The notes below the pieces were generated by a model. It had not been told where the DNA came from. It saw only the letters and a program-made list of their open reading frames with translations, and did not search any database. A program made the position numbers and the translations under genes. A DNA stretch of 42,753 nucleotides. Source: a virus. Its lineage: Duplodnaviria > Heunggongvirae > Uroviricota > Caudoviricetes. The stretch lies in IMG/VR virus record IMGVR_UViG_2663763477_000009. One strand, given 5' to 3'. Shown here one piece after another: positions 18,481 through 42,753 of this stretch (position 1 is its first letter; every line of letters begins with the position of its first letter).

Positions 18481-19956
18481 TTAGGAGCGCCAAAAAAAAC
18501 CTGAAAACAATATAATAACAGGATAAATTTCAAGGCGACCAAGAATCATAGCTATGCACATTAAATATTTTGCAATGTCATTAAGCACTCCGAATGACGA
18601 TGCAGTAGCCCCAAAACCTAATCCCATATTATTAATACATGCAGCCACTGTTGCAAATGATGTAAGAAAATCATATCCCATACCATTTAACACCAGTATA
18701 AAAAACACCGTGAAGAGAGTATAAAGAAAAAAGAAACTCCATACAGACCTCATTACACGATCTGTAACTATCTTCCCTCCTACATTTACACTCAACAACG
18801 CTCTGGGATGAGAAAGCTGATTTATCTCGTGTTTGCTTTGTTTGAAAAGTATAAGAAATCGAAGTGACTTAATTCCACCACAGGTTGAACCTATACATCC
18901 CCCAAAGAAACTTGACAACAGCAAAAACACTATCGTGTGCGTGGGCCAGTTTGCATAATCCTGCGTAGCTAAACCATTATCAGTGAGCATGGAGCTGGCA
19001 AGAAAAAACGAATGAATAAAACTTCCATGCAAGTCATACATACCTATATGCCAGACCTGGAAAGAGGTAACAATGATCACCCCTAAGGCTATTAACAGAA
19101 AGAAACGAAGTTCAATATCTCTGATTAAAGGTTTTATCGTTTTTCTGCTAATAACAATATACCAAAGAGTGAAGTTGAAAGCCGATAGCAGGGAAAAAGA
19201 ACCAGCCACCAGCTCAACCAAATAGTTATTAAAATATCCGATACTCTCGCTATGAGTTGAGAAACCACCAAGCGAAACTGTGGAAATCCCGTGACAAATA
19301 GCATCAAACAAAGGCATTCCTGCAAGTCTATAACAGACAATACAAGCAATACCTAATAAAGAATAAGTTATCCACAGTGTCCGTGACGTATCGGCCAGGC
19401 GGGGAGTGAGTTTGTCATCCTTAAATGGCCCCGGCATTTCTGACTGATAAAGCTTTGCACCACCAATACCCAATAATGGCAATACTGCAACCGCCAGAAC
19501 AATAACTCCTAAACCACCTATAAAATTTAACTGTGACCGATAGTACAAATATGCCCGAGGTAATGAACTAACATCATCAATTACAGTTGCTCCTGTTGTT
19601 GTTATTCCAGAAACCCCTTCAAACAGAGCATCAATGAACGTTAAATTAAGTTCTGAGTCAATCCATAAAGGGAATGCACTAATAACAGAAAACAAAATCC
19701 AAAACATTACAATTATAATAAACCCATCACGGGTACGTAATTGAATGCCAGATTTCTTAGTTGTATACCACGCTCCGCCACCAATGCAAAAAAATATAAC
19801 GAAAGTTATAAAGAAAACGAACAGGCTTTTTTCTTTATAAAACAATGCTACAACCATTGGTGGCAACATTGAAAGACTATAGAGCCAAACCAGGAACCCA
19901 CACATATGAGTAACAACTCTTACATGAGATGTATTCATATCTAAATATTCTTTCAA
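18481..19956 (-). CDS. trkG: Trk-family potassium uptake membrane protein TrkG (copy 1, full length)
   Basis: 491-aa polytopic membrane protein that I recognise as the prophage-borne TrkH paralogue TrkG. Confidence 0.9.
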   Translation of the reverse strand: MKEYLDMNTSHVRVVTHMCGFLVWLYSLSMLPPMVVALFYKEKSLFVFFITFVIFFCIGGGAWYTTKKSGIQLRTRDGFIIIVMFWILFSVISAFPLWIDSELNLTFIDALFEGVSGITTTGATVIDDVSSLPRAYLYYRSQLNFIGGLGVIVLAVAVLPLLGIGGAKLYQSEMPGPFKDDKLTPRLADTSRTLWITYSLLGIACIVCYRLAGMPLFDAICHGISTVSLGGFSTHSESIGYFNNYLVELVAGSFSLLSAFNFTLWYIVISRKTIKPLIRDIELRFFLLIALGVIIVTSFQVWHIGMYDLHGSFIHSFFLASSMLTDNGLATQDYANWPTHTIVFLLLSSFFGGCIGSTCGGIKSLRFLILFKQSKHEINQLSHPRALLSVNVGGKIVTDRVMRSVWSFFFLYTLFTVFFILVLNGMGYDFLTSFATVAACINNMGLGFGATASSFGVLNDIAKYLMCIAMILGRLEIYPVIILFSGFFWRS

Positions 19957-20075
19957 TTATAACCACCTTGCTGCAATATTATGATTATACTGTATAAAAT
20001 TTAACTCCTCTTAGATCTTACTTCACTGTTCCTTATGAAACAATCATCAAAATGAATCATATTGTAGTTAAGATT

Positions 20076-20552
20076 TTACTTTAAACACTGCTCGGTTATG
20101 TATTGCTGAGCACCTTCAAGTTGGGCCTGCATCATTACCAGTCGTTCCCGGAGGGTGAAATAATCCCGTTCAGCGGTGTCTGCCAGTCGGGGGCTGGTTG
20201 CATTATCCACGCCGGAGGCGGTGGTGGCTTCACGCACTGACTGACAGACTGCTTTGATGTGCAACCGACGACGACCAGCGGCAACATCATCACGCAGAGC
20301 ATCATTTTCAGCTTTCGCATCAGCTAACTCCTTCGTGTATTTTGCATCGAGCGCAGCAACATCACGCTGACGCATCTGCATGTCAGTAATTGCCGCGTTC
20401 GCCAGCTTCAGTTCTCTGGCATTTTTGTCGCGCTGGGCTTTGTAGGTAATGGCGTTATCACGGTAATGATTAACAGCCCATGACAGGCAGACGATGATGC
20501 AGATAACCAGAGCGGAGATAATCGCGGTGACTCTGCTCATTGCTGCCCCCAC
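20076..20552 (-). CDS. rzpR: Spanin inner-membrane subunit Rz (copy 1; without an adjacent holin/endolysin)
   Basis: 158 aa with an N-terminal TM segment and coiled-coil periplasmic domain; Rz1 is embedded in the +1 frame. Confidence 0.85.
20135..20320 (-). CDS. rzoR: Spanin outer-membrane lipoprotein Rz1 (copy 1), embedded in Rz
   Basis: 61 aa with lipobox VVGC and a Pro-rich tail ([14 protein letters not shown]), entirely inside the Rz frame. Confidence 0.8.
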
Positions 20553-20583
20553 AAACAGACTTCACGCTCAATCTCACGACGAG

Positions 20584-22053
20584 TCATGAGACCTTTCCAT
20601 TGCTTACCGCCAGCATATGTCCAGCGACGTAGCTGACAAGAATCATAGCTATGCACATTAAATATTTTGCAATGTCATTAAGCACTCCGAATGACGATGC
20701 AGTAGCCCCAAAACCTAATCCCATATTATTAATACATGCAGCCACTGTTGCAAATGATGTAAGAAAATCATATCCCATACCATTTAACACCAGTATAAAA
20801 AACACCGTGAAGAGAGTATAAAGAAAAAAGAAACTCCATACAGACCTCATTACACGATCTGTAACTATCTTCCCTCCTACATTTACACTCAACAACGCTC
20901 TGGGATGAGAAAGCTGATTTATCTCGTGTTTGCTTTGTTTGAAAAGTATAAGAAATCGAAGTGACTTAATTCCACCACAGGTTGAACCTATACATCCCCC
21001 AAAGAAACTTGACAACAGCAAAAACACTATCGTGTGCGTGGGCCAGTTTGCATAATCCTGCGTAGCTAAACCATTATCAGTGAGCATGGAGCTGGCAAGA
21101 AAAAACGAATGAATAAAACTTCCATGCAAGTCATACATACCTATATGCCAGACCTGGAAAGAGGTAACAATGATCACCCCTAAGGCTATTAACAGAAAGA
21201 AACGAAGTTCAATATCTCTGATTAAAGGTTTTATCGTTTTTCTGCTAATAACAATATACCAAAGAGTGAAGTTGAAAGCCGATAGCAGGGAAAAAGAACC
21301 AGCCACCAGCTCAACCAAATAGTTATTAAAATATCCGATACTCTCGCTATGAGTTGAGAAACCACCAAGCGAAACTGTGGAAATCCCGTGACAAATAGCA
21401 TCAAACAAAGGCATTCCTGCAAGTCTATAACAGACAATACAAGCAATACCTAATAAAGAATAAGTTATCCACAGTGTCCGTGACGTATCGGCCAGGCGGG
21501 GAGTGAGTTTGTCATCCTTAAATGGCCCCGGCATTTCTGACTGATAAAGCTTTGCACCACCAATACCCAATAATGGCAATACTGCAACCGCCAGAACAAT
21601 AACTCCTAAACCACCTATAAAATTTAACTGTGACCGATAGTACAAATATGCCCGAGGTAATGAACTAACATCATCAATTACAGTTGCTCCTGTTGTTGTT
21701 ATTCCAGAAACCCCTTCAAACAGAGCATCAATGAACGTTAAATTAAGTTCTGAGTCAATCCATAAAGGGAATGCACTAATAACAGAAAACAAAATCCAAA
21801 ACATTACAATTATAATAAACCCATCACGGGTACGTAATTGAATGCCAGATTTCTTAGTTGTATACCACGCTCCGCCACCAATGCAAAAAAATATAACGAA
21901 AGTTATAAAGAAAACGAACAGGCTTTTTTCTTTATAAAACAATGCTACAACCATTGGTGGCAACATTGAAAGACTATAGAGCCAAACCAGGAACCCACAC
22001 ATATGAGTAACAACTCTTACATGAGATGTATTCATATCTAAATATTCTTTCAA
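20584..22053 (-). CDS. trkG: TrkG copy 2 with a replaced C-terminus (last 19 aa exchanged for 17 unrelated aa at the duplication junction)
   Basis: Identical to copy 1 until ...CIAMIL, then diverges where the unit joins the endolysin 3' fragment. Confidence 0.8.
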
Positions 22054-22172
22054 TTATAACCACCTTGCTGCAATATTATGATTATACTGTATAAAATTTA
22101 ACTCCTCTTAGATCTTACTTCACTGTTCCTTATGAAACAATCATCAAAATGAATCATATTGTAGTTAAGATT

Positions 22173-22649
22173 TTACTTTAAACACTGCTCGGTTATGTAT
22201 TGCTGAGCACCTTCAAGTTGGGCCTGCATCATTACCAGTCGTTCCCGGAGGGTGAAATAATCCCGTTCAGCGGTGTCTGCCAGTCGGGGGGAGGCTGCAT
22301 TATCCACGCCGGAGGCGGTGGTGGCTTCACGCACTGACTGACAGACTGCTTTGATGTGCAACCGACGACGACCAGCGGCAACATCATCACGCAGAGCATC
22401 ATTTTCAGCTTTCGCATCAGCTAACTCCTTCGTGTATTTTGCATCGAGCGCAGCAACATCACGCTGACGCATCTGCATGTCAGTAATTGCCGCGTTCGCC
22501 AGCTTCAGTTCTCTGGCATTTTTGTCGCGCTGGGCTTTGTAGGTAATGGCGTTATCACGGTAATGATTAACAGCCCATGACAGGCAGACGATGATGCAGA
22601 TAACCAGAGCGGAGATAATCGCGGTTACTCTGTTCATTGCTGACCCCAC
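22173..22649 (-). CDS. Spanin inner-membrane subunit Rz (copy 2, part of the lysis cassette)
   Basis: 158 aa; differs from copy 1 at three residues; its start overlaps the endolysin stop. Confidence 0.85.
22232..22417 (-). CDS. Spanin outer-membrane lipoprotein Rz1 (copy 2), embedded in Rz
   Basis: 61-aa lipoprotein; one Ala-to-Pro difference from copy 1. Confidence 0.8.
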
Positions 22650-23131
22650 AAACAGATTTCACGCTCAATCTCACGACGAGTCATGAGACCTTTCCATTGC
22701 TTACCGCCAGCATATGTCCAGCGACGTAGCTGATCACATGCGCCTTTGATATCGCCCTGGTTTATTTTGCGAAGAAGCGTCGATGTTCTGAAATTGCCAG
22801 CACCCACGTTGTAAACGAATGAGTAAAGAGCGCCGCGCGTTGTTTCCGGTATATCGACTTTGATGTACGGGTTAATTTGTCTGGCGACAGTGGCAAGGTC
22901 TTTATTCAAGAGTGTTTTGCATTCTGCTTTGGTATACGTTTTACCGAGCATGATGTCTTTTCCTGTATGCCCGTGACATACAGTCCATACACCAACAATA
23001 TCTTTGTATGGTATGTAGCTGACACCTTCCAGACCATCGTTACCACTTGGGCCAGTGATTAACACTGATGCTATAGCAATTGCTCCGCCACCAATAGCAG
23101 CAGCAACGACTTTTCGTAATGATGGAGGCAT
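22634..23131 (-). CDS. SAR endolysin (phage-21 R-type lysozyme)
   Basis: 165 aa with an N-terminal Gly/Ala-rich signal-anchor-release segment ([18 protein letters not shown]) followed by a lysozyme domain. Confidence 0.85.
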
Positions 23132-25537: not shown

Positions 25538-25616
25538 CGATGTCCATGTCTGCAATCCGCCTCGCGATACAGCTTTGCGAAGCATAGCAAAATTGAAGCA
25601 GTTTATACGTAAGAAA

Positions 25617-26159
25617 TCAAGCCATTTTCTCAGCAAATGATTCACGCATGGGAATATATAGGGCATACTCAGCAACAGCTAACCAATTAGCAATCCGTTT
25701 TTCGCATGTGCTAAAACACCACTCTGGGTGTGCATCATTTAGCAATTCAGCCATTTTGCGCTTAGTCATCCCCCGCCCTTCATAGCGTTGCCGGAGAATG
25801 CAAATCAATCCTGGATGCTCTGCCAGCACCTCACTTATGACTCGATCAATACATAACGCCTCTGCATCAGTACAATGCGCCAGCCAGCTCTTTTGCTTGC
25901 CGTTGATCATCTCTCGCAAAAACGCTTCCAGCTCAGCTTTCTCTATTCCCGCTTTTTTCATTCTGCGCAGGGCTTCATTAATGGCTGTTTTCGTCAGTTT
26001 TTTGGATGCCAACAACTGATTGAACATATTCCCTGACCTGCCACCGCCAATATACGACCAGCGCCCCCACATACGTAGTTTTCCCTGAATCCAGACACTT
26101 TCCAGCGTGGTGAGGCGAAGGTGTTCTCCGCTTTTTCCTGTATTCGTTGGGTAAATCAT
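25617..26159 (-). CDS. Late-gene antiterminator Q-like protein (putative)
   Basis: 180 aa, Cys pairs, located at the end of the nin region directly upstream of the late/lysis region; assigned mainly by position. Confidence 0.5.
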   Translation of the reverse strand: MIYPTNTGKSGEHLRLTTLESVWIQGKLRMWGRWSYIGGGRSGNMFNQLLASKKLTKTAINEALRRMKKAGIEKAELEAFLREMINGKQKSWLAHCTDAEALCIDRVISEVLAEHPGLICILRQRYEGRGMTKRKMAELLNDAHPEWCFSTCEKRIANWLAVAEYALYIPMRESFAEKMA

Positions 26160-26446
26160 AAATGACCTTTCTTTCTCCAGATTTCTTGTGTGCGAAAAAC
26201 CCCTTCAGCATGCATCAGGCGCAATTCTTCTTTGGTGTAATCGCTGGTTTTTACCCGCCCGTCGATTAGATCGTGGCATGAGCTACAGGCTATCGCCGCC
26301 TGCATATCATGTGGTTTTGTCGCTGTTCCGCACGTCCCCGCCAGCCTGTAATGCGCCAGCACAGAGGTTTCGGGATTGTGATTGCAGTAGCCAGGGATTC
26401 TGATCTGGCACATCTGGCCTTTAGCCGCTTTACGTAAATTCACCAT
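26156..26446 (-). CDS. YbcO-like nin-region protein (DUF1364, zinc-binding)
   Basis: 96 aa with the pattern CQIRIPGYCNHNPETSVLAH...CGT..KP...AIACSSCHD that I recognise from the DLP12 ybcO family. Confidence 0.65.
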   Translation of the reverse strand: MVNLRKAAKGQMCQIRIPGYCNHNPETSVLAHYRLAGTCGTATKPHDMQAAIACSSCHDLIDGRVKTSDYTKEELRLMHAEGVFRTQEIWRKKGHL

Positions 26447-27045
26447 TACGCAAACTCCAGTAGTTGTGCGGCCACATTTTCAACTTCCTCCTGAGAGGAG
26501 AATTTACGGAACAGAATCCAGTTCCACAGCACATTCAGTACAGATTTATAAACCTGCTGAAACTCGACTTCGTCCATATTCGCAAAAGCGATGGATTTTG
26601 CCCGACGCCCACGGCTACCGTCCGGATAAATATGCTCGGTGTAAAATCCGGCCTGAATGGTTACCCACTCGCGGAAAGCCTCAAACGACTTTAGCAACGC
26701 CGTATCCCGGGTTCTACGAGTCGCAACGGTGTTAAGGTATTGCTCTGCGGCATCACTCAGGGCTGGCGTGTGTTCCCGACCAACTGATTCGCACAGGTAA
26801 TCAACGAAACCAGACAGCAGTTCTCGTTCGCGAGGCGTGATCGCCCCACCGACCGGAGTCCAGTAATCGAAACCCAGTTGCAGGAGTTTGAAAAAACGCT
26901 TGTGGAATGCGTAGTTACACACACGCTTAAAGTCTGCGTGTATCCACTCACCTATTTTGATTTGATGCAGAAAATCGCAACTCTCCGGCGTCGCCGGGAG
27001 AAGTAATCCGGAAGAGGTTTGTTTGACCAGTTGTATATGCGCCAT
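26446..27045 (-). CDS. nin-region hypothetical protein (DUF1367-like)
   Basis: 199-aa ORF translationally coupled to the ybcO-like gene. Confidence 0.5.
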   Translation of the reverse strand: MAHIQLVKQTSSGLLLPATPESCDFLHQIKIGEWIHADFKRVCNYAFHKRFFKLLQLGFDYWTPVGGAITPRERELLSGFVDYLCESVGREHTPALSDAAEQYLNTVATRRTRDTALLKSFEAFREWVTIQAGFYTEHIYPDGSRGRRAKSIAFANMDEVEFQQVYKSVLNVLWNWILFRKFSSQEEVENVAAQLLEFA

Positions 27046-27325
27046 TTCTCAATCTCTCGATGGCGCAGCGCAGCAGATGCCAGTTGTTCAGGCTGACGAA
27101 TAAAGTATAAATAAACTGGCTATGGTGTAAAGCCCCACATAGCATGAACAAACACTACATATCAAATAGCTGGTACAAGGATAGAAATACGACACTTATT
27201 ATTAAAAACGATTAGATAAATTACATTTTAATGTTATGCAAAAGTTCTTTTTTATCATAACATTTCAATAAAAGCATTACAGATGCAATCATCCCGTCAT
27301 CATCAATTATTTAAGGTGGTTAAAC

Positions 27326-27412
27326 ATGGAAAATAACAAGTTCGCACATCTCGCTCCTTTTTTATCCGTAATCCTTTTCGCTTGTTGTTTTATATGGGCA
27401 TTATTTTTATAA
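27326..27412 (+). CDS. Small hydrophobic peptide (28 aa), candidate membrane peptide or type-I-toxin-like
   Basis: ATG preceded by AAGGTGG at about 6 nt; reads MENNKFAHLAPFLSVILFACCFIWALFL (one predicted TM helix); sits in an AT-rich intergenic region. Confidence 0.35.
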   Translation: MENNKFAHLAPFLSVILFACCFIWALFL

Positions 27413-27820
27413 AGTAGCCACATGATAAGTTGCTGGAATCATATTTCCCACTCAAGTCATTAACATTTGATAAGATATATCTAAAAGGACGCCTTTACAT
27501 TATTTATGCGTATATAATTTATTTATATACACAGTAAAGGTATCCTGGGAAAATATTTATCGTTAAAAAATACATCATAAATAATTAAGCTGAAATTTCA
27601 GAACACAACTAATACACACAATAAGGTTCAGTAACAGTAATCTATGTGGACTACATCGAGATTTTTTGATTAAACTTTAATAACTTATTCCTAACACACA
27701 GAATGCATAAACTAAAAGTAAAACAAATAGTTATACGAAAAACAACCATATTTATTCTATCTTCTCCTCTAATCAACATATCAATTATGTGTTTCATAAC
27801 AGCTTGACATAACCCTCCAA

Positions 27821-27843
27821 AAGATGCATTTTTAATGCATGTT
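27821..27843 (+). promoter_or_regulatory. NsrR-type operator (11-1-11 inverted repeat) upstream of the yeaR-like gene
   Basis: AAGATGCATTT-T-TAATGCATGTT, close to the NsrR consensus as I recall it; a TTGACA hexamer lies just upstream at about 27804-27809. Confidence 0.5.
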
Positions 27844-27858
27844 TTGGAGGAGGTGGTT

Positions 27859-28197
27859 ATGACACACAAGAGAATTCCTAAAGATTGGGTAATCAAACGC
27901 TCAACTCCGTTCTTCACAAAAGAGAACGTACCTTCAGCGTTATTAACACATCATAATACAGCAGCAGGTGTTTTTGGGCAGTTGTGCGTAATGGAAGGCA
28001 CTGTAACATATTATGGTTTTACTGATGAGAATGCTACTGAACCGGAGATAAAAGTAGTCATTAATGCTGGCGCTTTTGCAACAAGCCCACCACAATACTG
28101 GCACCGTGTTGAACTAAGCGATGATGCTCAGTTTAATATTAACTTTTGGGTCGCTCCAGACTTTTCGGGCGAAAAAGTCTATAGCACCAAAAAATAG
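27859..28197 (+). CDS. YeaR-like protein (DUF1971 family)
   Basis: 112 aa from the ATG after a GGAGGAGG RBS; RSTPFFTKENVP...GQLCVMEGTVTYYGF...FNINFWVAPDF parallels the chromosomal YeaR sequence as I recall it. Confidence 0.75.
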   Translation: MTHKRIPKDWVIKRSTPFFTKENVPSALLTHHNTAAGVFGQLCVMEGTVTYYGFTDENATEPEIKVVINAGAFATSPPQYWHRVELSDDAQFNINFWVAPDFSGEKVYSTKK

Positions 28198-28226
28198 ATG
28201 ATCATATTAAAAATGCTTTAACAGTC

Positions 28227-28263
28227 AGACCCGGCAGGGCTATCCCCGACGGGTCTCATTTTT
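28227..28263 (+). terminator. Terminator-like hairpin after the yeaR-like gene
   Basis: Stem agacccg/cgggtct around a structured loop, followed by TCATTTTTG. Confidence 0.4.
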
Positions 28264-28817
28264 GTAAATATATTGGTTCTACATTGACAGGAGACTTCAA
28301 CCATAAGAAGTAATCTGAATACTTGAGCAATAAATTTACTTAAGATTAATGAGCGCACCTTGCCGGACAAAGATAAACCAAGGTAACACCTTTTTTCTAG
28401 CCAGTATGTAATCAATCAGAAAGCCGCTCCATAAGAACAACAGCAAGACAATAAATTGCCATTACAGCCGCAATAGCCAGCGCACATTTGAGAACCAGCA
28501 CGACAACCCCCTGTATTAGACGCACACCAGTCCTGATAAATATGAGGCTGTCTCGTCAGTGATTCAATACAACTATTGGGTATAGTTTCTGTGATTTTAT
28601 TCTGTAGAAATGGAACACAACAACCAGTCACCACCAGCACTTCCTTAAATGCTCTAAGTCAGAAACAAGCCAACATTTTAGTCCGCTTTGAGCGATCTGC
28701 AGACATTGCTAGCAGCCTTCTGTGTGAATTCTCAGGGAGCAGGTCGGCATAGCATCACGTTGAGGCTCTTACCCTACTTGTTCACACCAACCCTAACTCC
28801 ACAGACTGATTCATAAA

Positions 28818-29819
28818 TTAGTAATCTGCGTGTTTCGCACTTTTCAGAAATGCTTTCATATTTTCATTAGGTCGCTCAATTTCGAAGTTACTTCCATATA
28901 ACTCTTGTAATTTTGGCCATAACTTACTTAATAACCCTCTCCTGCGATAAAATGGATGTATCCAAACGGTAGATAGGTACGGAGAATTTGCATTTGAATT
29001 GTTTATTGTGACCAGCCCAACTAAACATTGTCGATAACCACTATTATCCATTGATTGTATTTCTTCGACGAATGGATACGCGATTACATCAGTCCAACCA
29101 TGATCGGTTGTATCCCATTGCATTCCGTCATGACATTCCTTCGACTGATAGCGGCGTAAAGCTACACACGCGAGCTTTTGCCAATCTGGAGAATTAATTG
29201 TGATCTCTTCATCGTATGACGCGCCTATTGGAGCGGGTATTGGTCTGATTAATCCAGCATGGCATTCATCATAGAACTTCATGTTTCCCTCAGAAACGTT
29301 GTGTACGTTGGGTTGCTCCATGTGTGCGCCATTCAAAAATAGCTCTGATAGTAGTGTATCTACACTGTAATCTTTATTGATTATTGTCGGCTTAGAGTTT
29401 TTCTTATTAAGGCCGCGAGTAACGATTTTTTGATCAATGTTAACAACATGGAATAATCCGTCGGGGAGGCTAGCGAACCACGATGGGGCATCGGACCAGA
29501 ATAGCATGCCTTTTGTACTTCTTAAGAGTTTAATTAAGTTAATACAAGCTTCTTCACTAGTCTTGCCGTTGATGCGAAGTATGTTAGGACTAAAGTAATA
29601 TTCATCCATATCAGGGAATGCAGCTTCGCAAAACTCCTGTACATAATTTAGCACCTGGATTCTACAGAGATCATCATAGCTGGTAATAACTAAGGGGGTA
29701 TCTTCATTACTATTATGATTATCAATAATGCAATCTATAGCGAGACTTACTGCTTTGCGTATCACTTCAGTTGAATCTAACGACTCTAAAAATTTTGTCT
29801 TTCGTGTGCGAATATCCAT
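28818..29819 (-). CDS. Cargo gene B: hypothetical protein with a GNAT-like C-terminal region
   Basis: 333 aa in an AT-rich block; C-terminus VWIHPFYRRRGLLSKLWPKLQELYG resembles the GNAT acetyl-CoA-binding motif; start lies 15 nt after the stop of gene A. Confidence 0.6.
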   Translation of the reverse strand: MDIRTRKTKFLESLDSTEVIRKAVSLAIDCIIDNHNSNEDTPLVITSYDDLCRIQVLNYVQEFCEAAFPDMDEYYFSPNILRINGKTSEEACINLIKLLRSTKGMLFWSDAPSWFASLPDGLFHVVNIDQKIVTRGLNKKNSKPTIINKDYSVDTLLSELFLNGAHMEQPNVHNVSEGNMKFYDECHAGLIRPIPAPIGASYDEEITINSPDWQKLACVALRRYQSKECHDGMQWDTTDHGWTDVIAYPFVEEIQSMDNSGYRQCLVGLVTINNSNANSPYLSTVWIHPFYRRRGLLSKLWPKLQELYGSNFEIERPNENMKAFLKSAKHADY

Positions 29820-29834
29820 GTATGACCTGCGCTA

Positions 29835-30857
29835 TTAAAATTCATGAATGAACGGTTTGTCATCTGGTTGCAAAATGGTGGTTTTATTCGTTGCTACATT
29901 TAAACTGTTGTAGAGCATAATTGCCAGGTTCGATGCATTTTCAATCAGCGTTTCAAGATCCTGGTCTGTAATCACTACGAGGTTCCCTTCTTTATCCTTT
30001 CCACCACGATGCACTAAGTGATTTCGATTGAGGGTTGCCAATTCAATAGCTTCTATCGGACAGTCTTTTTGTACTTTTATATCGAATGTAGCTTCATAGC
30101 GGTCGATTACCTTTTTAGTGCTATGCCAGCTTGCACTGATCAAGTGTTCCTTGATTGACCTGATTAGCTCTCCCCTAATTTTCTCGATGGGTTCACCCTT
30201 GAAAGGCAACGCAGCAATATCTTTGCTTACTTTAAATTCAGTCTTACCTTTTTCTATACAATTGGCTATGTAGACATCATCTTTCTCTATAGAATTAATG
30301 AATAGCTCAACATAAAGCGTTTCCAAAGCTGTAATAACATTCGTGTAGAGCAAACTAAGCAAGTGGTTTTTTTGCTGTTGTTCAGTTTTATCTTTTGCAA
30401 GTTTTTTTATTTTATCGATATTATCAATGAATTTTAAATACGGATTACCGGAAGACGTTACAGCGTCGTAGATATCATCATCGTACCAATCATCTATATT
30501 ATTTGAGTTTCCAGACCAGTCAAAACATTGTGTTTGTAATTCATCTACTAATTCCTCAATATACTCAGATTTAACATATTGACCGAAGATGGATTGTAGT
30601 TCTTCGCTCGCATCATACGGCCCGCCATATATGTAAGCATAGCCACCTTCTCTACTTTCATACGGACAAGCATTTGCCGGATCTTCAAAGTTTTCAAAGA
30701 ACCAGTTTTTCATTACTTCGAGTTGATCTTTTTTGCTTATGTATTTTAAAGATTTTAGTGGAACTTTCTTTCCATTAACCTCGAAAACAATTTTCACGAT
30801 GTAACGCTCCCTTGTATCAATTGCGCAACTATTATACCACAGCGAAATACAGGGCAT
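29835..30857 (-). CDS. Cargo gene A: hypothetical protein with a HEPN-like R-N-x3-H motif near the C-terminus
   Basis: 340 aa from the ATG preceded by AGGAGG; motif LATLNRNHLVHRGG in a helical C-terminal region; AT-rich codon usage unlike the flanking prophage genes. Confidence 0.6.
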   Translation of the reverse strand: MPCISLWYNSCAIDTRERYIVKIVFEVNGKKVPLKSLKYISKKDQLEVMKNWFFENFEDPANACPYESREGGYAYIYGGPYDASEELQSIFGQYVKSEYIEELVDELQTQCFDWSGNSNNIDDWYDDDIYDAVTSSGNPYLKFIDNIDKIKKLAKDKTEQQQKNHLLSLLYTNVITALETLYVELFINSIEKDDVYIANCIEKGKTEFKVSKDIAALPFKGEPIEKIRGELIRSIKEHLISASWHSTKKVIDRYEATFDIKVQKDCPIEAIELATLNRNHLVHRGGKDKEGNLVVITDQDLETLIENASNLAIMLYNSLNVATNKTTILQPDDKPFIHEF

Positions 30858-30995
30858 AACCTGCCTCCTTAAACTAACATACCATGAGCCAGCAATGTCC
30901 GCTATTGGCACAAAGCGGACAACCACGCTAGCTCTCCCCTGTGCCAGAAAAATGTCAATTTACATATGAACTAATGCTCTTTGATCTAGTAACGT

Positions 30996-41517: not shown

Positions 41518-42753
41518 ATGTCTAAATTACCAACAGGTGTCGAGATTCGAGGTAAATACATTCGCATCTGGTTCATGTTTCGAGGAAAACGATGTCGGGA
41601 AACATTGAAAGGCTGGGAGGTTACTAACAGTAACATTAAAAAAGCCGGGAATTTAAGAGCGTTGATAGTTCATGAAATCAATTCCGGTGAGTTTGAGTAT
41701 TTAAGACGTTTTCCCCAGTCCAGCACTGGGGCAAAAATGGTGACAACGAGGGTCATAAAAACGTTCGGGGAGCTTTGTGATATCTGGACAAAAATTAAAG
41801 AAACAGAGTTAACAACAAACACAATGAAGAAAACGAAATCACAATTAAAAACACTCAGGATAATAATTTGTGAGAGTACTCCGATATCGCATATTCGTTA
41901 TAGCGATATCTTAAACTACCGGAATGAACTGCTGCATGGAGAAACGCTTTACCTGGATAATCCAAGATCCAACAAAAAAGGAAGAACCGTGCGCACAGTT
42001 GATAACTATATCGCCCTGCTCTGTTCGTTGTTACGTTTTGCGTATCAGTCGGGATTTATATCAACCAAACCATTTGAAGGAGTAAAGAAATTACAGAGAA
42101 ACAGAATAAAGCCTGACCCGTTATCTAAAACAGAATTCAATGCATTAATGGAAAGTGAAAAAGGACAGAGCCAGAACTTGTGGAAATTTGCCGTATACTC
42201 CGGGCTTCGTCACGGGGAACTGGCTGCTCTGGCGTGGGAGGATGTGGATTTCGAGAAGGGAGTTGTGAATGTCAGAAGAAACCTGACGATACTGGATATG
42301 TTCGGTCCCCCAAAAACAAATGCGGGGATCCGGACGGTAACACTACTGCAGCCTGCTCTTGAAGCACTGAAGGAGCAATACAAACTGACCGGGCATCATC
42401 GCAAAAGCGAAATCACTTTTTATCATCGGGAGTACGGCAGAACCGAAAAGCAAAAACTGCATTTTGTTTTCATGCCCAGAGTGTGTAACGGAAAACAGAA
42501 ACCTTATTACTCGGTAAGCAGTTTGGGTGCGAGATGGAATGCAGCAGTAAAACGTGCTGGTATTCGCCGCCGTAATCCGTACCATACGCGGCATACTTTT
42601 GCCTGCTGGCTGTTGACGGCAGGAGCGAACCCGGCGTTTATAGCCAGCCAGATGGGGCATGAAACTGCGCAGATGGTGTATGAAATTTACGGTATGTGGA
42701 TTGATGACATGAACGACGAACAGGTAGCCATGTTGAATGCGCGGTTATCGTAG
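41518..42753 (+). CDS. intR: Tyrosine integrase IntR
   Basis: 411 aa; C-terminal catalytic region with ...HTRHTFACWLL... and an H-x-x-R/Y-containing tail; terminal gene of the prophage arm. Confidence 0.9.
   Translation: MSKLPTGVEIRGKYIRIWFMFRGKRCRETLKGWEVTNSNIKKAGNLRALIVHEINSGEFEYLRRFPQSSTGAKMVTTRVIKTFGELCDIWTKIKETELTTNTMKKTKSQLKTLRIIICESTPISHIRYSDILNYRNELLHGETLYLDNPRSNKKGRTVRTVDNYIALLCSLLRFAYQSGFISTKPFEGVKKLQRNRIKPDPLSKTEFNALMESEKGQSQNLWKFAVYSGLRHGELAALAWEDVDFEKGVVNVRRNLTILDMFGPPKTNAGIRTVTLLQPALEALKEQYKLTGHHRKSEITFYHREYGRTEKQKLHFVFMPRVCNGKQKPYYSVSSLGARWNAAVKRAGIRRRNPYHTRHTFACWLLTAGANPAFIASQMGHETAQMVYEIYGMWIDDMNDEQVAMLNARLS

Follow-up and report, generated by a model that had tools for sequence, protein, structure and literature searches.

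A predicted NsrR-controlled, nitric oxide-responsive gene cassette in a Rac-like lambdoid prophage

Introduction

Can a prophage bring its host a gene that responds to nitric oxide (NO) together with the operator that controls it? The question is raised by IMG/VR virus record IMGVR_UViG_2663763477_000009, a 42,753-nt stretch of DNA analyzed here as a whole (the window), in which the open reading frame (ORF) of a small DUF1971 protein is preceded by an inverted repeat resembling the binding sites of the repressor NsrR. The original prediction, made from the sequence of the window, was that the prophage had captured an NO-stress-regulated gene with its operator. Lambdoid phages carry both morons and cargo genes under host regulation, among them bor and lom of lambda, the Fur-controlled stx1 and sodC of Gifsy-2-type prophages.

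Based on the sequence comparisons described below, we consider it likely that the locus is a moron, a lysogenic-conversion cassette that NsrR represses and NO induces, and that it occupies the nin/Q-proximal cargo spot of a Rac-like prophage. Neither host-regulated morons as a kind nor the control of this gene family by NsrR in Salmonella is new. In a literature search we found neither a published NsrR-controlled phage gene nor a publication linking NsrR with DUF1971 or with the prophage copy. The most original aspects are the microdiversity of the operator and the phage-only occurrence of the gene in Escherichia coli.

Results and Discussion

The Prophage Gene Encodes an STM1808-Type Protein

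The 112-aa ORF of the original prediction, described as DUF1971/YeaR-like and as lying on the strand opposite to its neighbors, is present in the window (Table 1). Its product matches the Pfam family DUF1971 (PF09313) over profile positions 1–80 of 80, with 92 bits against a cut-off of 23.1 (E 2.3e-26), and belongs to phrog_34268 in PHROGs. Twelve stand-alone proteins of 111–114 aa from Salmonella, Klebsiella, Raoultella, Kluyvera, and Vibrio share 73–82% sequence identity with it. The chromosomal STM1808-type orthologues of Enterobacteriaceae are 79–82% identical, and the Aliivibrio fischeri protein with PDB entry 3DL3 is ≈80% identical, while YeaR of E. coli K-12 shares 41–42%. By sequence, the gene therefore belongs to the STM1808-type orthologous group.

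The closest known system is STM1808 of Salmonella enterica serovar Typhimurium. Both it and the window gene encode stand-alone DUF1971 proteins (112–113 aa, 79% identical) with His32 and His82, and both have an NsrR-type 11-1-11 site just before the ATG. The two histidines are invariant columns in both protein alignments, the window protein included. In STM1808 they are reportedly needed for zinc binding and NO resistance, and STM1808 itself is said to be a zinc protein under NsrR control that is required for systemic infection and when the cells grow under nitrosative stress. The window gene is predicted to encode a small zinc-binding protein. The two systems differ in their setting: STM1808 is chromosomal, downstream of nhaB-dsbB, with the center of its site at about −39, whereas the window copy lies in a prophage and has a site centered at −27 and a consensus −35 hexamer. 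The window copy also groups, weakly, with the Kluyvera/Leclercia type and not with the Salmonella type. In S. enterica subsp. diarizonae the orthologue comes after nhaB and dsbB, which we take to be the position of STM1808 in strain LT2, and the dsbB terminator precedes the gene in Salmonella, Citrobacter, Klebsiella, and Raoultella. This synteny is missing from the prophage copy, as expected for a gene that has been mobilized.

The naming of the family calls for some care. The N-terminal DUF1971 domain of the Haemophilus-type TehB (PDB 3M70; NCBIfam PRK12335) is homologous to the window protein (E 5e-11). The window protein, however, lacks the methyltransferase domain and reaches 49 bits with PRK12335 against a cut-off of 303 bits, so that it is misleading when some genomes label such proteins "TehB family". 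By prediction, a "tehB homolog" was assigned to the enterobacterial and Photobacterium regulons of NsrR (Rodionov, 2005; PMC1274295), and no regulation of tehA and tehB was seen in a Salmonella nsrR mutant (Gilberthorpe et al., 2007; PMC2884951). The "tehB homolog" was probably the DUF1971 gene (STM1808) and not tehB itself, and the confusion lives on in genome annotation as "TehB family protein". A statement in PMC7527575, citing Karlinsey (2012), gives STM1808 as NsrR-regulated with a role in virulence.

The Palindrome Before the Gene Scores as an NsrR Operator

A palindromised weight matrix was built from 26 distinct 11-1-11 NsrR sites of CFT073 derived from chromatin immunoprecipitation sequencing (Table 4 in Mehta et al., 2015; PMC5320621). 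The 23-mer in front of the prophage gene, AAGATGCATTTTTAATGCATGTT, scores 26.9 bits with this matrix, and the runner-up in the 42.7-kb window scores 11.8 bits. When each of the 26 published sites was scored with itself left out, they ranged from 6.8 to 29.7 bits; ytfE (29.7 bits) alone lies above the window site, with hcp at 23.5 bits and yeaR at 20.9 bits. The operator has two mismatches to AAGATGCATTTNAAATGCATCTT and is the sole match with at most three mismatches in the window, and none of 100 shuffled windows contained such a match. The proximity to the NsrR consensus claimed in the original prediction is thus confirmed, and the motif scan proposed there agrees with it. By its sequence, the operator resembles the ytfE site and the sites found before the chromosomal orthologues.

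The promoter elements named in the original prediction are likewise in place: the −35 hexamer TTGACA, the strong ribosome-binding site GGAGGAGG and the terminator-like hairpin. TTGACA is unchanged in all 25 prophage copies examined. It aligns with the TTTACA of Kluyvera/Leclercia-type loci, and both hexamers stand 11 nt from the operator. The candidate −10 element CATTTT has both critical bases, A in the second position and T in the sixth. In most other alleles T at 27832 is replaced by A, which weakens CATTTT and creates a perfect TATAAT in the alternative position. An arrangement in which the −35 hexamer is followed, after 17–18 nt, by operator positions 7–12 is also found in Kluyvera-type loci (TATTTT) and in Klebsiella (TTGACG-18-CATATT). 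The GGAGG before the ATG is kept in the chromosomal orthologues. Whichever plausible −10 hexamer is taken, the operator overlaps it and the probable start site, as is classical for repression. Neither NarL heptamers (TACYYMT) nor an FNR site were found between 27600 and 27860, and the promoter therefore looks activator-independent, unlike that of yeaR. The hairpin consists of seven G+C-rich pairs and three inner pairs and is followed by CATTTTTG, which ends at 28264; the 81 nt around it fold with −19.4 kcal/mol (z = −2.1).

The original prediction likened the operator to the yeaR-yoaG promoter and called the gene a YeaR paralogue. YeaR (E. coli yeaR-yoaG; Lin, Bledsoe and Stewart, 2007; PDB 3BB6) does share with the window gene the domain family, the NsrR regulon and an operator over the core promoter (the latter two being predictions for the window), and the term paralogue stands in so far as both proteins are of the DUF1971 family. 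A common Pfam family and an NsrR-type palindrome upstream of both genes would also be expected if the cassette were a recent duplicate of the E. coli yeaR-yoaG promoter and gene, which would imply activation by NarL/NarP in addition to repression by NsrR. We regard this as hardly credible. The protein is 41% identical to YeaR on alignment, against 79–82% for the STM1808 type, and the yeaR operator is a different one: it reads AAATGGTATTTAAAATGCAAATT, differs from the window operator at 8 of 23 positions and lies ≈75 nt from its ATG and not 27 nt. In addition, yeaR is co-transcribed with yoaG, activated by NarL and equipped with a weak −35 and a long leader, and the window gene has none of these features; no yoaG lies downstream, nor does any Pfam-recognizable ORF follow the gene on its 3′ side. 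A copy of E. coli yeaR is thus refuted by protein identity, operator sequence, leader length, and the missing yoaG and NarL sites.

Gene and Operator Were Captured Together

Scanning one genome per species gave 80 orthologous loci, and the 250 nt upstream of each were scored. Sites of at least 18 bits, centered 27–55 nt before the ATG, were found at 53 of these loci, and 5 of the 2200 control segments drawn from these loci reached that score. The positive loci comprise all those of Enterobacteriaceae (centers −27 to −39), except for one Leclercia in which the site is shifted by an indel, plus two of Photobacterium. Most loci of Vibrionaceae, Shewanella, and Oceanospirillales have no site.

In Kluyvera, Leclercia, Pantoea, Enterobacter, Pseudescherichia, Silvania, and Buttiauxella the order is TTTACA, 11 nt, operator, GGAGG, ATG. 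The phage order (TTGACA, 11 nt, operator, GGAGG, ATG) is colinear with it. When the window was compared with the chromosomal loci by sensitive blastn, homology extended from about −41 (−67 to −125 in a few cases) to the stop codon, with DNA identities of ≈70–74%. A neighbor-joining tree unites the prophage copies in a single clade (200 of 200 bootstraps), whose sister, weakly supported, is the Kluyvera/Leclercia group (96 of 200). The G+C content at third codon positions is 0.34 for the prophage gene and 0.44–0.66 for the enterobacterial chromosomal orthologues.

On the strength of the sites before the orthologues, the colinear promoters and the limits of homology from about −41 to the stop codon, the sequences indicate that the cassette was captured as one promoter-operator-gene unit from an enterobacterial-type chromosome. 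This part of the original prediction is thus borne out by the comparative data. As judged from the same sequences, the capture is old or the donor lineage has not been sampled. A recent donor among the sequenced genera was rejected, as the best chromosomal DNA identity is ≈73%, and so was E. coli, a species without a chromosomal copy.

Two side observations concern the chromosomal loci. The orthologues of the Kluyvera, Leclercia, Pantoea, and Enterobacter group (loci L005–L026; e.g., L005 3916–3934) have a Fur-box-like 19-mer, GATAATGAGATTTATTATC, ≈65–85 nt ahead of the ATG, at a fixed place just 5′ of the −35 hexamer. It matches GATAATGATAATCATTATC at 13–17 of 19 positions, and a match of 15 is reached by 2 of 4940 control segments. 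In the prophage copy this element has been lost (best match 11 of 19). The pattern suggests dual control by Fur and NsrR in these genera. Further, the predicted provirus IMGVR_UViG_2767802158_000003 has at its edge a Klebsiella-type copy (L113 603–989, 78% identical; site AAGATGCATATTAAATACATCTT, 29.4 bits), which is either chromosomal flank taken in by the provirus caller or a second, independent capture.

The Coding Sequence Is Conserved While the Operator Varies

Sensitive blastn detected the coding sequence (CDS) in 457 of 5426 complete E. coli genomes, always with at least 95% DNA identity and in 309 of them with at least 99%. No more divergent copy was found in these 5426 genomes, and E. 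coli thus holds the gene solely as a family of prophage alleles. Strains with the locus include NCTC9066, NCTC9112, and NCTC10444. The gene is also present in one Shigella flexneri genome and in three deposited complete phage genomes (vB_EcoS-673R7, -613R10, and -666R9). The annotation of 673R7 places it as in the window, with Q on one side and the replication genes on the other. When IMG/VR was scanned for the NsrR-site pattern, 35 contigs were returned, 17 of which carry the same gene. The other 18 were not accepted as cases of NsrR-controlled phage genes, their number being roughly what chance would give (estimated, not computed).

The regulatory region behaves differently from the CDS. Of 456 genomes, 16 match its 101 nt in the window with at least 99% identity and 293 with 90–95%, which makes the operator version of the window a minority allele. 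The 70 nt before the ATG exist in 10 versions among 25 copies. Apart from one change at −59 (three copies) and a single-base-shifted allele (L109), all differences fall between −45 and −10, and outside these exceptions neither the core of the ribosome-binding site nor the start codon changes. The left half-sites read AAGATG, AACACG, AAGGTG, or AAGGAG, and the operators of these 25 copies score 17.6–28.9 bits, most of them at least 26. Between the window and a nearly identical copy from Shigella (L004), 6 of the 40 differences in 3.2 kb are concentrated in the 32 nt from 27818 to 27849, and one is in the CDS.

Such rapid change relative to the flanks, and the small share of genomes with a nearly identical promoter/operator region, might be taken to mean that the cassette is an inert passenger of a decaying cryptic prophage, the gene and site being relics of the capture that are under no selection and have no regulatory or physiological effect. 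Many of the carriers are indeed defective Rac-type prophages, and that of strain LD39-1 has pseudogenes and an IS2 insertion. The CDS argues the other way. Besides its near identity in two-thirds of the carriers (309 of 457), the ratio of nonsynonymous to synonymous substitution rates (dN/dS) among the prophage alleles is 0.08–0.2, and none of the copies examined is disrupted. Although the counts are small, these values indicate that the protein is under purifying selection. Nor does the regulatory region look abandoned: the −35 hexamer, the Shine-Dalgarno sequence and the start codon are invariant, and each operator variant scores at least 17.6 bits, above many validated sites. The gene is moreover present in the three complete phage genomes mentioned above. 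We therefore consider an inert passenger improbable.

An Extended Palindrome Surrounds the Operator

The palindrome proved longer than the 11-1-11 repeat of the original prediction. It spans 37 nt (27814–27850), its arms are complementary at 16 of 18 positions, and outer arms extend it from the −35 hexamer to the start codon (Table 1). As RNA this quasi-palindrome folds with −26.3 kcal/mol (z = −5.4). The extended structure is present in all 10 phage allelic versions (−14 to −30 kcal/mol) and absent from the chromosomal orthologues (−9 to −18 kcal/mol), and positions 27818 and 27846 change together, from C:G to A:T. The sole Rfam match between 27000 and 29000, to mir-616, is a chance match that reflects the palindrome.

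These properties are what one would expect if the palindrome were not mainly an NsrR operator but a phage-specific structural element or the site of another dimeric regulator, the match to NsrR having been inherited and being no longer decisive. In the structural variants, a 60-nt hairpin would hide the ribosome-binding site and AUG in transcripts started upstream, or would act as a processing or pause site in the antisense transcript derived from pR. The persistence of the fold in every allelic version and the paired change would fit such a role. Yet covariation in the extended hairpin is no better than in shuffles, with one pair showing changes on both sides, and the invariant outer arms give no information either way. 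The 23-mer core is the part that is conserved across genera. An mRNA directed by the −35 at 27804 would begin within the loop or past it, so that the hairpin could not form, and the window has no + strand phage gene upstream of the cassette that could give read-through transcripts. We accordingly make no claim for the extended hairpin as a selected RNA structure, and we consider this family of explanations improbable, on a par with the inert passenger.

Several observations nevertheless weigh against an NsrR-repressed cassette. The palindrome reaches well past an NsrR site. The commonest alleles have weaker left half-sites (AACACG, 20.0 bits; AAGGAG, 17.6 bits), and no part of the cassette varies more than its regulatory region, which may point to control that is relaxed and not tuned. 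The canonical distance from the −35 offers no −10 hexamer matching at four or more of six positions, and a simple promoter/terminator scanner called no promoter at the cassette. It called no terminator there either. The silence of the scanner is explained by the missing −10 (at least 4/6 matches 16–18 nt after the −35) and by the internal loops of the hairpin.

As a matter of speculation, the clustered multi-base changes could be explained by template-switch mutagenesis at the quasi-palindrome; tuning of repression also fits them.

The Cassette Lies in a Variable Cargo Spot

The window is an essentially complete Rac-like lambdoid prophage (Table 1). The DUF1971 ORF is the one + strand ORF in an interval bounded by the DUF1367/YbcO/DUF1133 (Q-like) block on one side and two hypothetical genes of 333 and 363 aa on the other, and these flanking phage genes are all on the − strand. 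The cassette has a G+C content of 41%, compared with 49% in the adjacent nin genes.

Table 1. Features of the cassette and of the surrounding prophage (positions in the window).
Feature	Position	Strand	Remarks
−35 hexamer TTGACA	27804–27809	+	sigma-70-type promoter of the gene itself
Extended quasi-palindrome	27805–27864		from −35 to start codon; arms 27814–27830/27834–27850 (94% complementary), outer arms 27805–27814/27855–27864
NsrR-type operator (predicted)	27821–27843		11-1-11 inverted repeat AAGATGCATTT-T-TAATGCATGTT; center 27 nt before ATG
Candidate −10 CATTTT	27827–27832	+	17 nt after −35, within left half-site; from spacing
Alternative −10 TTTAAT	27831–27836	+	21 nt from −35; TATAAT in most other alleles
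Shine-Dalgarno sequence GGAGGAGG	27846–27853	+	5 nt before ATG
CDS, 112-aa DUF1971 protein	27859–28197	+	STM1808-type orthologue; ATG 27859, stop 28195–28197
Lineage-specific 3′ flank	28198–28396		between recombination junctions 28194/28197 and 28397
Terminator-like hairpin (AGACCCG...CGGGTCT) and T-run	28227–28264	+	hairpin 28227–28256
Integrase	41518–42753		
recE/recT		+	
Replication, nin, Q-like, lysis, and tail genes		−	

Related prophages carry hokD or another 3′ flank at this spot. The segment 25558–28194 is the sole part that the window has in common with two other prophage loci (L085 and L003) here. Prophages of the 673R7/FDAARGOS_1370 type share 25558–28194, diverge directly past the stop codon and continue with a Hok/Gef gene, and the NU14 prophage is common with the window from 28397 onwards, hokD replacing the cassette. 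As both types differ from it there, the terminator-bearing segment 28198–28396 is specific to the lineage of the window. No hok/sok-type locus was recognized just 3′ of the gene in the window: the small ORFs have no Hok/Gef Pfam match, and there is no Rfam match of that kind between 27000 and 29000.

Some further observations were made around the cassette. The ≈760 nt upstream of it (27046–27803) are AT-rich (30.5% GC), contain no convincing ORF and travel with the cassette, and around 27550–27600 there is a highly divergent or indel patch between allele families. Downstream, 28397–28817 has no Pfam- or Rfam-recognizable content and is found at 88–98% identity in 1850 of the 5426 E. coli genomes. 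The majority of these 1850 have no DUF1971 gene, and in the NU14 prophage the stretch adjoins hokD. The two adjacent hypothetical genes on the − strand (28818–30926) encode the 333-aa protein, with a weak GNAT match, and the 363-aa protein, with a weak match to a HEPN/RES N-terminal domain. They belong to phrog_16994 and phrog_17908, and a PADLOC search with both gave no match. Their position in the cargo region suggests a possible defense or toxin pair. Elsewhere in the window (18481–22649), trkG and the adjacent lysis gene occur twice in tandem. They are single-copy in strain LD39-1, where the same segment is matched by both 20637–22884 and 18540–20636.

A Model for a Predicted NO-Responsive Moron

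In several respects the cassette resembles the classical morons. These are autonomous promoter-gene-terminator units between phage modules, expressed from the repressed prophage under a host stress regulator, as predicted here, with a base composition unlike that of their neighbors and a presence in some but not all related phages. The cassette likewise has a consensus −35 (promoter activity being predicted), a terminator-like hairpin, a differing G+C content, and a variable presence among related phages. It differs from them in that the regulator would be NsrR and in that it is convergent with the pR-driven transcription of the phage.

From the sequence we infer NsrR binding, derepression by NO, the transcription start site, and a benefit to the lysogen, which may be pictured as follows. 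In the lysogen, the iron-sulfur repressor NsrR of the host would occupy the 23-bp operator, which overlaps the −10 region and the start of a promoter with a consensus −35, and the gene would be silent. NO would nitrosylate the cluster of NsrR, and the repressor would leave. The resulting mRNA would have a short leader and a strong ribosome-binding site, would be read from the strand opposite to early and late phage transcription, and would end at the hairpin with its T-run. The product would be a small zinc-binding protein whose Salmonella orthologue is reportedly needed for nitrosative-stress growth and virulence. Since E. coli has no chromosomal copy, the phage would thereby supply the STM1808 member of the NsrR regulon.

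If so, a phage is the probable source of an NO-inducible defense gene in about 8% of E. coli strains. A further and more tentative idea, which we hold to be less likely than not, is that NO resistance is phage-transferable in E. coli through Rac-like temperate phages and wired to NsrR, the diversity of the operator (at least 10 versions, against a constant CDS, −35 and ribosome-binding site) serving as lineage-specific tuning of the NO threshold, perhaps generated by quasi-palindrome template switching.

Genes under NsrR control are a first-line defense of enterobacteria against host NO, and STM1808 contributes to the virulence of Salmonella. The practical significance is modest, as the regulation of the family was already known in Salmonella. 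The carriers, ≈8% of the complete genomes, come from humans, poultry, pigs, and wastewater. Should the gene prove NO-inducible and protective, E. coli's NsrR regulon would have a strain-variable, horizontally supplied part, and the cassette would be a clean natural case of a phage importing a gene plus an operator that joins a stress circuit of the host. The locus also offers a natural allelic series of operators for NsrR affinity and promoter overlap.

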